Source: Escherichia coli
GTDB lineage: Bacteria > Pseudomonadota > Gammaproteobacteria > Enterobacterales > Enterobacteriaceae
Direction: 5' to 3' (one strand)
Length of the DNA stretch: 64,000 nucleotides
Assembly (NCBI RefSeq): GCF_044647545.1
Contig: NZ_CP172818.1
Of the stretch, positions 12,955-50,958 are shown piece by piece (within the stretch, counting starts at the first letter, position 1; each line of letters opens with the position of its first letter). Both the position numbers and the translations under genes were made by a program. The notes under the pieces were generated by a model. That model was not told the origin of the DNA. It ran no database searches and saw nothing but the letters and a program-made list of their open reading frames with translations.

Positions 12955-12973
12955 TAGATAAATTTCAGGCAAC

Positions 12974-13052
12974 AAAAAACCCACCAACCTTGAACCGAAA
13001 TGGCGGGGTTGATGGGCTCCACAAAATGGGGACATCAAAGAAAAGCAGTGGC
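12974..13052 (-). ncRNA. rybB: sigmaE-dependent small RNA RybB
   Basis: Minus-strand sequence GCCACTGCTTTTCTTTGATGTCCCCATTTTGTGGAGCCCATCAACCCCGCCATTTCGGTTCAAGGTTGGTGGGTTTTTT matches RybB as recalled, with 3' terminator hairpin and U-run; rcdA-ybjL intergenic location. Confidence 0.85.
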
Positions 13053-40297: not shown

Positions 40298-40993
40298 TTA
40301 ATTACGTTTTTCCAGTAGAGTCCGGTAAATCAGACCACCGATAATACCGCCGACAATTGGCACCACCCAGAAGAACCACAATTGTTCTAACGCCCAGCCG
40401 CCCTGGAAGATAGCAACCGCGGTGCTGCGCGCCGGGTTAACAGAAGTGTTAGTCACCGGAATACTGATTAAGTGAATCAGGGTTAAGGCCAGACCAATAG
40501 CGATCGGCGCAAAACCTGCCGGAGCGAATTTGTCGGTTGCGCCGTGGATCACCAGCAGGAAACCTGCACTCAATACCAGTTCAACTACCAGCGCGGAAAG
40601 CATGGAATAACCGCCTGGCGAATGCTCGCCATAACCGTTAGAAGCAAAACCGCTGGCTGCCGCGTCAAAACCTGTTTTACCACTGGCAATTAAATACAGC
40701 AGCGCCGCCGCAACAATACCGCCGACAACCTGGGCAATTACGTAGCCAACGACTTCTTTTGCCGGAAAACGTCCGCCAGCCCATAAACCAATAGTGACCG
40801 CCGGGTTAAAATGACCACCAGAAATATGACCAACAGCGAAGGCCATCGTCAGAACGGTCAGACCGAATGCCAGCGCCACGCCGGCAAAACCAATGCCTAA
40901 TTCCGGGAAGCCTGCGGCCAGTACGGCACTACCACAGCCACCAAAAACAAGCCAGAAAGTACCAAAACATTCAGCTGCTAATTTTCTGAACAT
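40298..40993 (-). CDS. aqpZ: Aquaporin Z
   Basis: 231 aa from ATG 40993; two NPA motifs (HFNPAV, SVNPAR). Confidence 0.95.
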
Positions 40994-41418
40994 ATCCACC
41001 TCAATTAAAAATTGACCCTGTGAAAAATATGGTCGTTTTATAGGGTCGTCGTAAAAAAGTGACGACGGAAATAATGCGCGGCTATTTTAAAAACGAAGGC
41101 GAGTCATTCACCAGATAAATAAATCCAGTAAATTTGATTTAGGGCAACAGCGGGTTGCCCCATATAGTCATTTGTCTGATTGACAGTGTAGTGCAAGCAA
41201 AAGATTTAATCCTTTAGGCGTAATAAAAAATAATTTATCATGCTAATTATTTGATTTTGTTGTTTTTGCAGGCTTATCAGCAAGAGGGAGTATAACGCGA
41301 TTATTCGCTCATTTTTCAGACATTTGCCATGCTTAAATGTGATGTCATCACGTATTAGCAAGGCCTTTCCCGTTATACTGCCAGCGTAAAGGATAAGTCA
41401 CATATTTCTGGAGGGGAT

Positions 41419-43077
41419 ATGATTCTTGAGCGCGTTGAAATTGTGGGTTTTCGCGGTATCAACCGTTTGTCGTTGATGCTGGAACAAAACAACGTCCTGA
41501 TTGGGGAGAACGCGTGGGGTAAATCCAGCTTGCTGGACGCCTTAACCCTGCTGCTATCGCCAGAATCAGATCTCTACCATTTTGAGCGCGACGATTTCTG
41601 GTTCCCGCCGGGAGATATCAACGGGCGAGAACATCATCTGCATATTATTTTGACCTTCCGCGAATCGCTGCCAGGCCGACATCGGGTTCGCCGCTATCGA
41701 CCGCTGGAAGCGTGCTGGACGCCATGCACCGATGGCTATCACCGTATTTTTTATCGTCTGGAAGGGGAGAGTGCGGAAGACGGCAGCGTGATGACACTCC
41801 GCAGTTTTCTCGATAAAGACGGACATCCGATTGATGTCGAGGATATTAACGATCAGGCACGCCATCTGGTGCGTTTAATGCCGGTGCTGCGCTTGCGTGA
41901 TGCCCGTTTTATGCGCCGTATTCGTAACGGCACGGTGCCAAATGTCCCTAATGTGGAAGTCACCGCGCGCCAGCTCGATTTCCTCGCCCGTGAGTTATCC
42001 TCACATCCGCAAAATCTCTCTGATGGGCAGATTCGTCAGGGACTTTCCGCAATGGTACAGCTGCTTGAGCATTATTTCTCTGAGCAGGGGGCCGGACAGG
42101 CGCGATATCGTTTAATGCGGCGGCGAGCCAGCAATGAGCAACGAAGTTGGCGCTATCTGGATATCATCAACCGGATGATTGACCGACCTGGAGGGCGCTC
42201 GTATCGGGTTATTTTGCTCGGCCTGTTTGCTACTTTGTTGCAGGCAAAAGGCACATTGCGACTGGATAAAGACGCCCGTCCATTGTTGCTGATCGAAGAT
42301 CCAGAAACCCGTTTACACCCCATTATGCTTTCAGTTGCCTGGCATCTGTTGAATCTTCTGCCATTGCAGCGCATTGCCACCACCAACTCTGGCGAGCTGC
42401 TTTCGTTAACGCCGGTAGAGCATGTTTGCCGACTGGTACGTGAGTCCTCGCGCGTTGCCGCCTGGCGTCTGGGGCCGAGTGGTTTGAGTACCGAAGATAG
42501 CCGACGCATATCCTTTCACATTCGTTTTAACCGTCCGTCATCGCTGTTTGCACGCTGCTGGCTGCTGGTGGAAGGGGAAACGGAAACCTGGGTTATCAAT
42601 GAACTGGCGCGTCAGTGCGGACATCATTTTGATGCTGAAGGGATCAAGGTCATTGAGTTTGCCCAGTCCGGGCTAAAGCCACTGGTTAAATTTGCCCGGC
42701 GAATGGGGATTGAATGGCATGTACTGGTCGATGGCGATGAAGCAGGGAAGAAATATGCCGCTACGGTACGCAGCCTGTTGAATAACGATCGGGAAGCCGA
42801 ACGAGAACATTTAACGGCGTTACCGGCGCTGGATATGGAACATTTTATGTATCGCCAGGGATTTTCCGATGTGTTCCACCGCGTGGCGCAAATCCCGGAA
42901 AATGTACCGATGAATCTGCGCAAAATTATCTCGAAAGCGATCCATCGCTCTTCCAAACCCGATCTTGCCATTGAAGTGGCAATGGAGGCCGGACGTCGTG
43001 GTGTGGACTCCGTACCGACGCTGCTGAAAAAAATGTTCTCACGCGTGCTGTGGCTGGCGCGCGGTCGCGCGGATTAA
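41419..43077 (+). CDS. ybjD: OLD-family ATPase/TOPRIM nuclease homologue YbjD
   Basis: 552 aa; N-terminal Walker A (GENAWGKSS), C-terminal TOPRIM-like acidic motifs (LLVEGETE, LVDGDEAG). Confidence 0.88.
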   Translation: MILERVEIVGFRGINRLSLMLEQNNVLIGENAWGKSSLLDALTLLLSPESDLYHFERDDFWFPPGDINGREHHLHIILTFRESLPGRHRVRRYRPLEACWTPCTDGYHRIFYRLEGESAEDGSVMTLRSFLDKDGHPIDVEDINDQARHLVRLMPVLRLRDARFMRRIRNGTVPNVPNVEVTARQLDFLARELSSHPQNLSDGQIRQGLSAMVQLLEHYFSEQGAGQARYRLMRRRASNEQRSWRYLDIINRMIDRPGGRSYRVILLGLFATLLQAKGTLRLDKDARPLLLIEDPETRLHPIMLSVAWHLLNLLPLQRIATTNSGELLSLTPVEHVCRLVRESSRVAAWRLGPSGLSTEDSRRISFHIRFNRPSSLFARCWLLVEGETETWVINELARQCGHHFDAEGIKVIEFAQSGLKPLVKFARRMGIEWHVLVDGDEAGKKYAATVRSLLNNDREAEREHLTALPALDMEHFMYRQGFSDVFHRVAQIPENVPMNLRKIISKAIHRSSKPDLAIEVAMEAGRRGVDSVPTLLKKMFSRVLWLARGRAD

Positions 43078-44066
43078 CCGCGAAACATCGTGGCCATTTG
43101 TGGCTGAATAGCGTCGAGCATCTCATAGCGCCGACGGTATTCAGCCCGTTTTTTACTGGCGATTTCGGCAATCTCTTTTCGTGCTATCTGTGCTGGAAGG
43201 CGGTAATGGCGTTCAGCATCACATACGCCGCCAACCGACTCCCAGAACGCGTTGTAATCGGCATGGATCTTGCCTTCTTTATCACGATAACGCAGGCTGC
43301 GGTAAATATGCGTTTCATTGCTGACGGCAATAATCTGCTCTACCTGCAAACGTTGGGCAAACAGACAGGCCGCTTCCATCACGAGGCGTTTGGGAAATAG
43401 CCCGTGGCAGGCTTTCGTCGCATTCTGGATTTCCTGGTGTGGAATTTCCCATTTTGCGCCTTGCAGTCCGCCAATAAACATCGTCCTTTTCCCCTGATAT
43501 TCACACAGGGTAAACGTGAGCTCTGCCAGAGGAATACCTTCGCTGTTGCGGAACAGGATGGTGCTGTCACCTTCTTTATCCATTGAGATCATCATGGTCA
43601 GCTCAAGCGTGAACTGCTCGCCGTTTTTGCCTTCCAGCTTCGCCAGTTGCAGCCCGGGGGTATTCAAATATAAGCTGAATTCTTCCGCCGACATACACCC
43701 GCGGAGTAACGCATAATGGTAACGTAACGCCTCCAGCAATTGCTTACGGCTAAGATTCGCCGCAAGGTAAGGGCGATGTAGACGTACAGGCAGTCGCGGC
43801 TGGCGCGTTAACAACACATTGAGATTAGGCCAGTGGGAAAGTTCGTTCATCCACTCAACGCTTAAACGCGGCATAATCAACGAGCGCAGCAAAAATTTCT
43901 GGCGAAAACTACGGCGATGCCAGAATTTACCCGGCCGACACTGTCCACGTGCCAGACTAAGAAAAAGTGACAGGCTGCTGAGAGATTCAGATGGCGTAAA
44001 GGTCCGTTCAGTTAGCTGCGACATATTCATGAAATCAATGATTATACATGACGTCGATTTCACCAT
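43074..44066 (-). CDS. ybjX: VirK/DUF535-family protein YbjX
   Basis: 330 aa; convergent 4-bp overlap with ybjD. Confidence 0.85.
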   Translation of the reverse strand: MVKSTSCIIIDFMNMSQLTERTFTPSESLSSLSLFLSLARGQCRPGKFWHRRSFRQKFLLRSLIMPRLSVEWMNELSHWPNLNVLLTRQPRLPVRLHRPYLAANLSRKQLLEALRYHYALLRGCMSAEEFSLYLNTPGLQLAKLEGKNGEQFTLELTMMISMDKEGDSTILFRNSEGIPLAELTFTLCEYQGKRTMFIGGLQGAKWEIPHQEIQNATKACHGLFPKRLVMEAACLFAQRLQVEQIIAVSNETHIYRSLRYRDKEGKIHADYNAFWESVGGVCDAERHYRLPAQIARKEIAEIASKKRAEYRRRYEMLDAIQPQMATMFRG

Positions 44067-50738: not shown

Positions 50739-50826
50739 GTTCACTGCCGTACAGGCAGCTTAGAAATTCACTGGTAACATACTCCACCCGCCCACCATGT
50801 TCACTGCCGTACAGGCAGATAAAATG
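50739..50826 (+). CRISPR. Vestigial type I-F CRISPR array: 2 repeats (second degenerate at 3' end), 1 spacer of 32 bp; no cas genes nearby
   Basis: Repeat 1 at 50739-50766 GTTCACTGCCGTACAGGCAGCTTAGAAA (the I-F / Ypest-type repeat); spacer 50767-50798; repeat 2 at 50799-50826 GTTCACTGCCGTACAGGCAGataaaatg; AT-rich leader upstream; clpA-infA location is the known I-F CRISPR site in E. coli. Confidence 0.85.
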
Positions 50827-50870: not shown

Positions 50871-50958
50871 TGGCGGTGAGGGGGGGATTCGAACCCCCGA
50901 TACGTTGCCGTATACACACTTTCCAGGCGTGCTCCTTCAGCCACTCGGACACCTCACC
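50871..50958 (-). tRNA. serW: tRNA-Ser (anticodon GGA)
   Basis: Minus-strand 88-nt sequence GGTGAGGTGTCCGAGTGGCTGAAGGAGCACGCCTGGAAAGTG...GGGGTTCGAATCCCCCCCTCACCGCCA with cloverleaf features, long variable arm, 3' CCA. Confidence 0.93.

Follow-up and report, generated by a model that had tools for sequence, protein, structure and literature searches.

YbjD of Escherichia coli: an OLD-family core-genome protein with its strongest sequence constraint on the Toprim core

Introduction

Proteins of the OLD (overcoming lysogenization defect) family are now commonly presumed to be anti-phage effectors, and one of them, YbjD, is carried by Escherichia coli, Salmonella, Klebsiella and Yersinia. Is YbjD a defence protein, or does it have a job in the cell? 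We considered this question for the ybjD locus within a 64,000-nt stretch of an E. coli chromosome (contig NZ_CP172818.1 of assembly GCF_044647545.1; hereafter, the window). An initial annotation of the window, made from sequence, had described ybjD as a core-genome homologue of OLD nucleases with no established role, and had refrained from claiming a new system. That caution was right. YbjD had already been described. Schiltz (2019) used YbjD (b0876) as the query that defined the OLD data set and placed E. coli with the solitary ‘Class 1’ genes (PMC6755086). In May 2026, a microPublication called ybjD a Class 1 OLD gene, proposed the name oldB, and reported that arabinose induction of the gene had anti-phage effects (PMC13261556). 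The finding is real and already in the literature, family assignment included. ‘No established role’ has been partly overtaken by these reports. The gene is counted in the E. coli ‘y-ome’ (cited in PMC13261556). Literature searches for DUF2813 and b0876 yielded nothing further; other mentions of ybjD concern a strain-construction site, a transcriptome table (in which a cathelicidin-derived peptide induces it by ∼1.3 log2), and an EnrR chromatin immunoprecipitation peak in Edwardsiella. What our analysis adds is evidence of near-fixation, synteny without a partner gene, purifying selection, constraint on the Toprim core, and a Class-2-type helical domain.

Results

YbjD is a member of the OLD family

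The open reading frame (ORF) list contains ybjD as annotated, with an ATG start and 552 codons plus stop, and RefSeq names the identical sequence ‘ybjD: ATP-dependent endonuclease’. The motifs picked out earlier lie at residues 29–37 (GENAWGKSS), 382–389 (LLVEGETE) and 436–446 (LVDGDEAGKKY). Pfam assigns residues 1–375 to DUF2813 (E = 3.5e-160) and residues 376–440 to OLD-like_TOPRIM (PF20469, E = 7.8e-16), and P-loop families of the SMC/AAA_15 kind also match the N-terminus. Among PADLOC profiles, those for GajA (up to 7e-80) and Old (2e-24) match YbjD, and the AriA profile matches the P-loop region only (residues 1–51, 9.1e-13). No curated NCBIfam model scored above its cutoff; retron_eff_Eco8, for example, gave 20.5 bits against a cutoff of 250.

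To place YbjD structurally, we used a family profile built from 62 full-length relatives with 28–54% identity (alignment A1). Its first matches in the PDB are the OLD protein of Thermus scotoductus (Ts OLD; 9.5e-22) and GajA (6e-20), followed by PtuA and retron OLD, and then by the heads of SMC, Rad50, RecF and RecN. An AlphaFold2 model of YbjD (pLDDT 88.4, pTM 0.87) was ranked by Foldseek closest to GajA (2e-18), Ts OLD (4e-16) and the retron Eco8 OLD, and its overall fold agrees with that of solved OLD proteins. The N-terminal part carries the Walker A, Walker B and D-loop elements of an ABC-type ATPase, and the C-terminal part the conserved Glu (E385) and DxD (D438, D440) of a Toprim domain. 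Because profile, sequence and fold searches agree, we consider OLD family membership to be secure. Thus the ATPase–Toprim assignment of the initial annotation stands, and the two approaches it had suggested, profile search and structure prediction, both lead to the same family.

ybjD is a syntenic core gene without a partner

Of 5426 complete E. coli genomes, 5424 carry the ybjD locus (identity ≥95%), in every case together with aqpZ and ybjX, which agrees with its earlier designation as a core gene. When one genome per species was scanned, YbjD relatives turned up in no fewer than 494 genomes, and the best 80 are all from Enterobacterales. Identity to the E. coli protein declines with taxonomic distance, from 97–99% within Escherichia to ∼90% in Citrobacter and Salmonella, ∼85% in Klebsiella and Enterobacter, ∼80% in Cedecea and Buttiauxella, and 64–68% in Serratia, Pectobacterium, Brenneria and Hafnia.

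In the window, the gene order is lysO(ybjE)-aqpZ-ybjD-ybjX-macA-macB. The order lysO-(aqpZ)-ybjD-(ybjX)-macA is retained in 80 Enterobacterales loci and in Yersinia; aqpZ is absent from loci of Pectobacteriaceae and Yersiniaceae, and ybjX, but not ybjD, has been lost repeatedly (in Klebsiella, Raoultella, Trabulsiella and others). Hence ybjD is, as annotated, a solitary gene in a conserved chromosomal context, with no partner gene. Farther afield, the homologue in a Pasteurellaceae genome is still divergent from a lysO-type gene, and those in Vibrio, Acidobacteriota and other metagenomic contigs are solitary, surrounded by unrelated genes of mostly housekeeping type. Near the distant homologues examined, we saw neither a helicase nor a reverse transcriptase nor a further nuclease. 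The GC content of ybjD, overall and at third codon positions (GC3), looks native, and 50,697 phage records contain no YbjD homologue except for a 2-kb unannotated fragment. Judged from these sequence comparisons, ybjD is not a mobile defence gene, and appears to have been inherited vertically since at least the Enterobacterales ancestor.

A mobile ybjD had also been considered on account of database matches labelled ‘plasmid’. The full-length, high-identity matches listed are either records of 0.5–5 Mb (mislabelled chromosomes or chromids) or records of 42–88 kb in which ybjD adjoins ybjX, just as in the chromosome; these matches offer no evidence of a mobile copy.

We attribute the strong GajA-profile matches to shared OLD ancestry. 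The alternative, that ybjD encodes an orphan Gabija-type nuclease served by a helicase in trans (e.g. UvrD, Rep or HelD), strikes us as unlikely. No UvrD-like gene lies beside ybjD or its homologues in ∼90 loci examined, and no helicase gene lies within ∼6 kb in any locus. The 62-member profile is about as near to the Class 1 Ts OLD as to GajA (by the E-values above, which are distances and not a tree), and the postulated in-trans partner is without support.

A different kind of association was suggested by the convergent neighbour, ybjX. The 4-bp overlap reported earlier is present both in the sequence and in RefSeq, with the TAA stop of ybjD at 43075–43077 and the minus-strand stop of ybjX at 43074–43076. 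The pair is listed, from RNA-seq coverage, among 165 convergent excludons in E. coli (PMC12288877), and a terminator-like hairpin for ybjD lies inside ybjX (43133–43150). These features would suit a two-gene functional or regulatory (excludon) module. However, ybjX is missing from several genera in which ybjD lies beside macA, and elsewhere it is only 46–66% identical where YbjD is 80–91% identical, with dN/dS values (ratios of non-synonymous to synonymous substitution rates) of 0.07–0.24 versus 0.015–0.07. Nor are the neighbours of distant homologues related. It follows that ybjX is not an obligate partner of ybjD. The idea of a functional pair is largely refuted, and we regard a ybjD–ybjX module of either kind as very improbable. 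As a separate observation, ybjX outpaces all of its neighbours in evolution, YbjD, AqpZ, LysO and MacA being 80–92% identical in the same genera.

Several individual loci deserve mention. In Necropsobacter (L091, 8645–9715), a dinB-like gene of the IMS family follows the YbjD homologue on the same strand, 70 bp downstream, and in another contig (L088, 6120–6716) lexA lies two genes away. These neighbours hint at DNA damage, but they are two cases only and could be due to chance. One genome labelled E. coli (L001, strain SCPM-O-B-8794) encodes a protein 99% identical to that of the window but has a dS of 0.46, far above what is usual within E. coli, and hence probably represents a cryptic Escherichia lineage. 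Finally, in E. coli GABEEC10 (H25, the lowest-ranked of 25 rows sampled along the ranked matches of the E. coli genome search), the match breaks at query position 423 (window ∼41322), ∼50 bp upstream of the ybjD –10 box, and there is a second matching place in the record; together, these suggest an insertion in the aqpZ–ybjD spacer.

Purifying selection is strongest on the Toprim core

To gauge selection, we calculated dN/dS by the Nei–Gojobori method relative to E. coli; dS is saturated beyond Citrobacter, making ratios there rough. For ybjD, dN/dS is 0.015 in E. albertii, ∼0.03 in Citrobacter, and 0.05–0.07 in Klebsiella and Enterobacter. These values are equal to or below those of aqpZ, lysO and macA, and those of ybjX (given above) are far higher. 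Comparison of the E. coli Toprim core (residues 376–445) with those of E. albertii, four Citrobacter species and Silvania reveals not a single non-synonymous difference, despite dS values of 1.0–1.6. With dN at zero and dS at or above one, the constraint acts on the protein rather than on the DNA. Across 79 orthologues, the Toprim core is 94.5% identical, compared to 74–86% for other segments. These sequence data indicate that ybjD is under strong purifying selection, which acts hardest on the Toprim core. As this is the predicted nuclease site, the data argue that the selected function requires Toprim catalysis.

The same data bear on whether ybjD might be a decaying relic without current function. 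In favour of such a reading are the lack of a deletion phenotype and the listing of the gene in the y-ome. Yet 5424 genomes and 79 species have an uninterrupted ybjD reading frame, no motif residue varies, dN/dS is 0.015–0.07 at saturated dS, the –10 box and Shine–Dalgarno (SD) sequence are conserved, and the transcript is detectable (PMC13261556). The selection data refute the idea of a relic, to which we assign next to no probability.

Known phenotypes do not depend on the Toprim domain

Phenotypes of ybjD have been described in PMC13261556. Deletion of the gene in the Keio background leaves the plating of 68 BASEL phages unchanged. With expression from pBAD at a non-toxic level of inducer (0.001% arabinose), plaquing is reduced for Bas18 and Bas20, and the plaques of Bas64–68 are smaller. 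Mutation of the three acidic Toprim residues, or deletion of residues 378–552, makes no difference in plaque assays, whereas deletion of the ATPase domain abolishes the phage effect. The phage effect persists with the K35A variant, whose toxicity is increased. Whereas P2 Old kills a recBC(ts) host, YbjD does not.

There is thus a conflict between the evolutionary constraint on the Toprim core and its published dispensability. Probably, the plasmid phenotype of ybjD does not report the function that has been kept by selection.

How do these results bear on a role in defence? One reading, put forward in the 2026 microPublication, is that ybjD is a dedicated single-gene anti-phage system (Class 1 OLD, ‘OldB’) that senses certain phages and stops them, possibly by abortive infection, and that happens to be fixed in the core genome. 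Every characterised bacterial OLD protein (P2 Old, Vibrio cholerae (Vc) OLD, GajA, retron Eco8 OLD) is a defence protein; the best profile matches of YbjD are PADLOC defence profiles; induced YbjD reduces the plaquing or plaque size of the phages named above at a non-toxic inducer level; and greater toxicity of K35A is what one would expect of an auto-inhibited effector. On the other hand, the deletion is null for 68 phages and the effect requires a plasmid. Unlike known defence genes, ybjD is present in virtually all E. coli genomes (5424/5426) and fixed among housekeeping genes across an order, with dN/dS values of 0.015–0.07 and no phage-borne relatives among the phage records searched. Moreover, the phenotype is independent of the Toprim domain, yet this is the most constrained part of the protein. 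On balance, we consider a dedicated defence system possible but rather doubtful.

The initial annotation had put ybjD forward as a candidate for a defence or DNA-processing function, to be judged by plaque assays of deletion and catalytic mutants. Nuclease-based defence has been weakened, given the null deletion and the wild-type-like behaviour of the Toprim mutants and K35A. The published assays speak against the candidacy to that extent only, and OLD membership is untouched by them.

Candidate catalytic residues

In all 79 Enterobacterales orthologues, residues K35, E293, D294, E296, H300, E385, E389, D438, D440, E474 and K513 are invariant. In the broader 62-member family, E30, E385, E389, D440, E474 and K513 do not vary. 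Asp occupies position 438 in 61 of 62 members, and likewise position 472. The K35 position is Lys in 55 members and Arg in 6, and position 294 is Asp in 35 and Glu in 18. Seventeen of the 18 invariant columns of this alignment fall within residues 362–514.

In the ATPase region, the LLLIEDPETRLHP block, invariant in the orthologues, aligns to E276 (Walker B) and H283 (D loop) of Ts OLD, the roles of which are taken from PMC7049728. The AlphaFold2 model has five helices (residues 177–195, 202–223, 228–237, 241–255 and 259–277) inserted in the ATPase fold, with lower confidence there. This is the least conserved segment of YbjD, both in the 79 orthologues and in the 62-member family. The dimerisation domain of Ts OLD is inserted at the same place (PMC7049728), and the helical insertion of YbjD is its predicted counterpart.

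The candidate catalytic set, read from the alignments, comprises E385, D438 and D440 for metal A; E389, D472 and E474 for metal B; and K513 as the lysine. These seven residues are plausible counterparts of the Class 2 set E400/E404/D455/D457/T506/E508/K562 (PMC6755086), in the order E385/E389/D438/D440/D472/E474/K513. The order of E389, D472, E474 and K513 along the sequence is that expected for the residues of a second metal site and lysine, for which they are candidates. References for this part of the site are E404, T506, E508 and K562 in Bp OLD and D381, S478 and E480 in Ts OLD; the catalytic set of GajA is E379/D511/K541.

Two further ideas were rejected. We considered YbjD as a peculiar hydrolysis-dead ATPase, given its degenerate signature, D294 and N323, but PMC7049728 describes both the degeneracy of the signature and the variability of the Q, D and H loops as general features of OLD proteins. 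Likewise, family members of 800–1867 residues might have been OLD–helicase fusions, but the alignment shows the same protein with low-complexity insertions. In these long proteins (P0149, P0162, P0163, P0165, P0175 and P0196 of alignment A2), all catalytic motifs are retained, and the insertions, large and poorly conserved, interrupt the ATPase N-lobe and the stretch that links the Toprim core to the C-terminal helices.

YbjD in relation to known OLD classes and systems

By gene context, ybjD looks like a Class 1 OLD gene, being solitary, with no helicase, retron or AriB neighbour. By structure it does not. Class 1 Ts OLD lacks the helical domain that succeeds the Toprim fold in Class 2 enzymes (PMC7049728, PMC12796447), whereas the YbjD model has four confident helices at residues 473–547, and the Burkholderia Class 2 structure of the Toprim and helical domains (6nk8_B) can be aligned to it over 164 of its 204 residues at 2.3 Å. 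Eleven unclassified OLD clades (U1–U11) have been recognised besides Classes 1–5 (PMC12796447). Relying on the model for its architecture, YbjD is best described as an OLD clade of its own (Pfam DUF2813), Class 1 in context and apparently Class-2-like in architecture. It does not correspond to PARIS (AriA, an ABC ATPase, with a fused or separate DUF4435 Toprim, AriB), because Pfam identifies OLD-like_TOPRIM rather than DUF4435. Nor is it part of a retron, as no retron RNA was detected in the window at Rfam gathering thresholds and no reverse transcriptase is present among the annotated neighbours.

Comparison with individual proteins is instructive. GajA of Bacillus cereus (Gabija, Class 2; PDB 8u7i, 8sm3, 8x5i) forms a 4:4 complex with the adjacently encoded GajB helicase. 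YbjD shares only ∼15–17% structure-based identity with GajA and has no helicase neighbour in any genome examined; also, Gabija is accessory and moves horizontally, whereas ybjD is a syntenic core gene. Ts OLD (PDB 6p74) differs from YbjD not only in lacking the post-Toprim helical domain but also in having His at the H-loop position, where YbjD has Asn. P2 Old, the Class 1 archetype, is like YbjD a single-gene ATPase–Toprim protein that is toxic when deregulated. However, it is only 18% identical to YbjD (PMC6755086), is phage-borne, is triggered by RecBCD inhibition, and cleaves the anticodon stem of tRNA-Thr(UGU). P2 Old requires both its ATPase and Toprim residues, whereas the known phenotype of YbjD requires neither K35 nor the Toprim domain (PMC13261556). 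Vc OLD, a Class 1 DNA nickase, resembles YbjD in being a solitary chromosomal OLD protein that is anti-phage when expressed. Cran1 of Saccharolobus (Class 5 OLD) provides a precedent for an order-wide, vertically inherited OLD protein that is apparently not involved in defence. Cran1 is an active nickase and ATPase, archaeal and essential, with cell-cycle-timed expression and a place in a conserved operon beside a membrane protein, whereas ybjD is non-essential and solitary. The likeness is meant as one of evolutionary behaviour, not of close sequence kinship.

Upstream region and expression

The AT-rich upstream region noted earlier is 419 bp long if measured to the first GTG in frame with aqpZ and 425 bp long if measured to its RefSeq start (ATG at 40993); its GC content is 0.37, compared to 0.53 for ybjD and 0.51 for the window. 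In an alignment from 11 genera, conservation is confined to ∼50 bp beside ybjD and an aqpZ-proximal block. The former includes an invariant TATACT and a GGAGG located 4 nt from the ATG, in which positions 41410, 41411, 41413 and 41414 are invariant; these two elements support the ybjD start codon. A consensus promoter scan found nothing upstream of ybjD, and the putative –10 box came from the cross-genus alignment. Its surroundings (41372–41379) show an invariant G at –14 and C or T at –13, with no recognisable –35 element. RpoS prefers promoters that combine TATACT, C or T at –13 and a weak –35, and the divergent aqpZ is RpoS-dependent. By this general pattern, the ybjD promoter may resemble RpoS-dependent promoters, which we offer as a lead only. 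SOS control of ybjD was considered and rejected, as no LexA-box-like site (CTGT-N8-ACAG, ≤1 mismatch) occurs in 41000–41418.

The aqpZ-proximal half of the spacer contains the conserved block AAATTTGATTTAGGGCAA (41130–41147) and a second block at ∼41110–41125, which are probably promoter or operator elements of aqpZ. A repeat search between lysO and aqpZ found none.

Table 1. Coordinates of features at the ybjD locus, numbered from the first nucleotide of the window
Feature	Coordinates	Strand	Basis
ybjD (oldB) CDS	41419..43077	+	ORF list, RefSeq, Pfam DUF2813 and OLD-like_TOPRIM
N-terminal ABC-type ATPase region, residues 1–375, helical insertion included	41419..42543	+	Pfam DUF2813
Walker A/P-loop GENAWGKSS, residues 29–37, K35	41503..41529	+	Motif position; invariant in 79 Enterobacterales orthologues
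Helical insertion in ATPase fold, residues ∼177–277, predicted dimerisation counterpart	41947..42249	+	AlphaFold2 model
Walker B/D-loop block LLLIEDPETRLHP, residues 289–301 (E293, D294, E296, H300)	42283..42321	+	Profile alignment
Toprim core, residues 376–445: E385, E389 (LLVEGETE), D438-x-D440 (VDGDE)	42544..42753	+	PF20469
C-terminal helical domain, residues ∼473–552; D472/E474 (metal B candidates) at N-terminal edge, K513 (candidate lysine)	42835..43074	+	
aqpZ–ybjD divergent spacer, GC 0.37	40994..41418	.	Sequence
–10 box TATACT, putative ybjD promoter	41374..41379	+	Invariant in 11-genus alignment; promoter function inferred
Shine–Dalgarno GGAGG, 4 nt 5′ of ATG	41410..41414	+	41410, 41411, 41413 and 41414 invariant in 11 genera
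TTAA, 4-bp shared stop-codon overlap, convergent ybjD/ybjX	43074..43077	.	Sequence and RefSeq coordinates
ybjX (VirK/YbjX family), convergent neighbour, non-partner	43074..44030	–	RefSeq

Other features of the window

Elsewhere in the window, an orphan type I-F CRISPR remnant (50739–50818, plus strand) lies beside a tRNA gene (50874–50958, minus strand). It comprises one complete repeat, GTTCACTGCCGTACAGGCAGCTTAGAAA, matched by Rfam CRISPR-DR4 at 50.1 bits, then a 32-nt spacer and a second repeat that is truncated, GTTCACTGCCGTACAGGCAG. We take this to be the clpA–infA CRISPR locus known from E. coli strains without I-F cas genes. The small RNA RybB is encoded at 12971–13049 on the minus strand, with a full-length Rfam match of 104 bits.

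Discussion

What might the selected function of YbjD be? The comparisons above establish the family, fold, motifs, conservation, synteny and absence of a partner; from them we infer nuclease activity, ATP gating, substrate and biological role. The N-terminal module would be an ABC ATPase head of the SMC/Rad50 type, into which a helical (dimerisation) region is inserted. The C-terminal module would be a Toprim nuclease using two metals, complete only with a Class-2-type helical domain, from which the lysine comes. Most likely, YbjD would oligomerise via the helical insertion of the ABC head and act like GajA, without a helicase partner. ATP bound at K35/E293/H300 of the head would keep the oligomer quiet, representing a regulatory state. 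The Toprim site would be freed when nucleotide is lost or a particular nucleic-acid structure is captured, and together with K513 it would then nick DNA or cut structured RNA. The greater toxicity of K35A (PMC13261556) fits a GajA-like logic in which ATP keeps the enzyme off, given that ATP inhibits cleavage by GajA (PMC8136825, PMC12796447). The substrate could be DNA, which is what Ts OLD, Vc OLD, GajA and Cran1 act on, or tRNA, the target of P2 Old and AriB. The native role would most likely lie in conserved nucleic-acid processing, genome maintenance or guard. The Toprim-independent interference with phages may be a side effect of the overproduced ATPase/dimerisation module binding or titrating something. 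That the stand-alone ATPase–Toprim model and a nuclease-dependent native role, distinct from the overexpression effect, both hold is a proposition on which we are evenly divided.

Several points weigh against this proposal. The literature searched holds no biochemical (nuclease or ATPase) data on YbjD. The deletion strain is viable and lacks a phage phenotype, and no growth or DNA-damage phenotype was found in the literature. The sole known phenotypes are anti-phage and phage-specific (Bas18, Bas20, Bas64–68), which fits the usual role of the OLD family in defence, and Toprim mutants are indistinguishable from wild type in plaque assays (PMC13261556), which thus give no direct sign that the nuclease is used. 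In addition, Asp (D294) stands next to Walker B in place of the Glu of Ts OLD, and Asn (N323) occupies the H-loop position. ATP hydrolysis by YbjD may therefore be slow or absent, although OLD proteins commonly vary in this way.

Family precedent and the published phenotypes favour a role in defence. A conserved cellular role is favoured by fixation, synteny, purifying selection at a housekeeping level and the null deletion, and by the precedent of Cran1. We tentatively suggest, with confidence that falls short of even, that the DUF2813/YbjD clade may be a bacterial counterpart of Cran1, either a domesticated OLD protein or one that never served in defence, with a housekeeping nucleic-acid task. 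Such a task may be to resolve or nick a particular DNA structure, or to trim structured RNA in the manner of the Toprim RNase M5. If true, a housekeeping role would explain the fixation, the synteny and the extreme constraint on the Toprim core across Enterobacterales and beyond, and would make the published phage effects overexpression artefacts of the ABC head.

The sharpest question is why the Toprim domain is dispensable in the assays and yet the most conserved part of the protein, and this is directly testable with chromosomal point mutants. If ybjD is a fixed defence gene, then it would represent a rare immune effector under housekeeping-type selection. If instead it has a cellular job, there would be one fewer fully uncharacterised gene in E. 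coli, and the OLD family would have a bacterial housekeeping branch, as Cran1 provides for the archaea.

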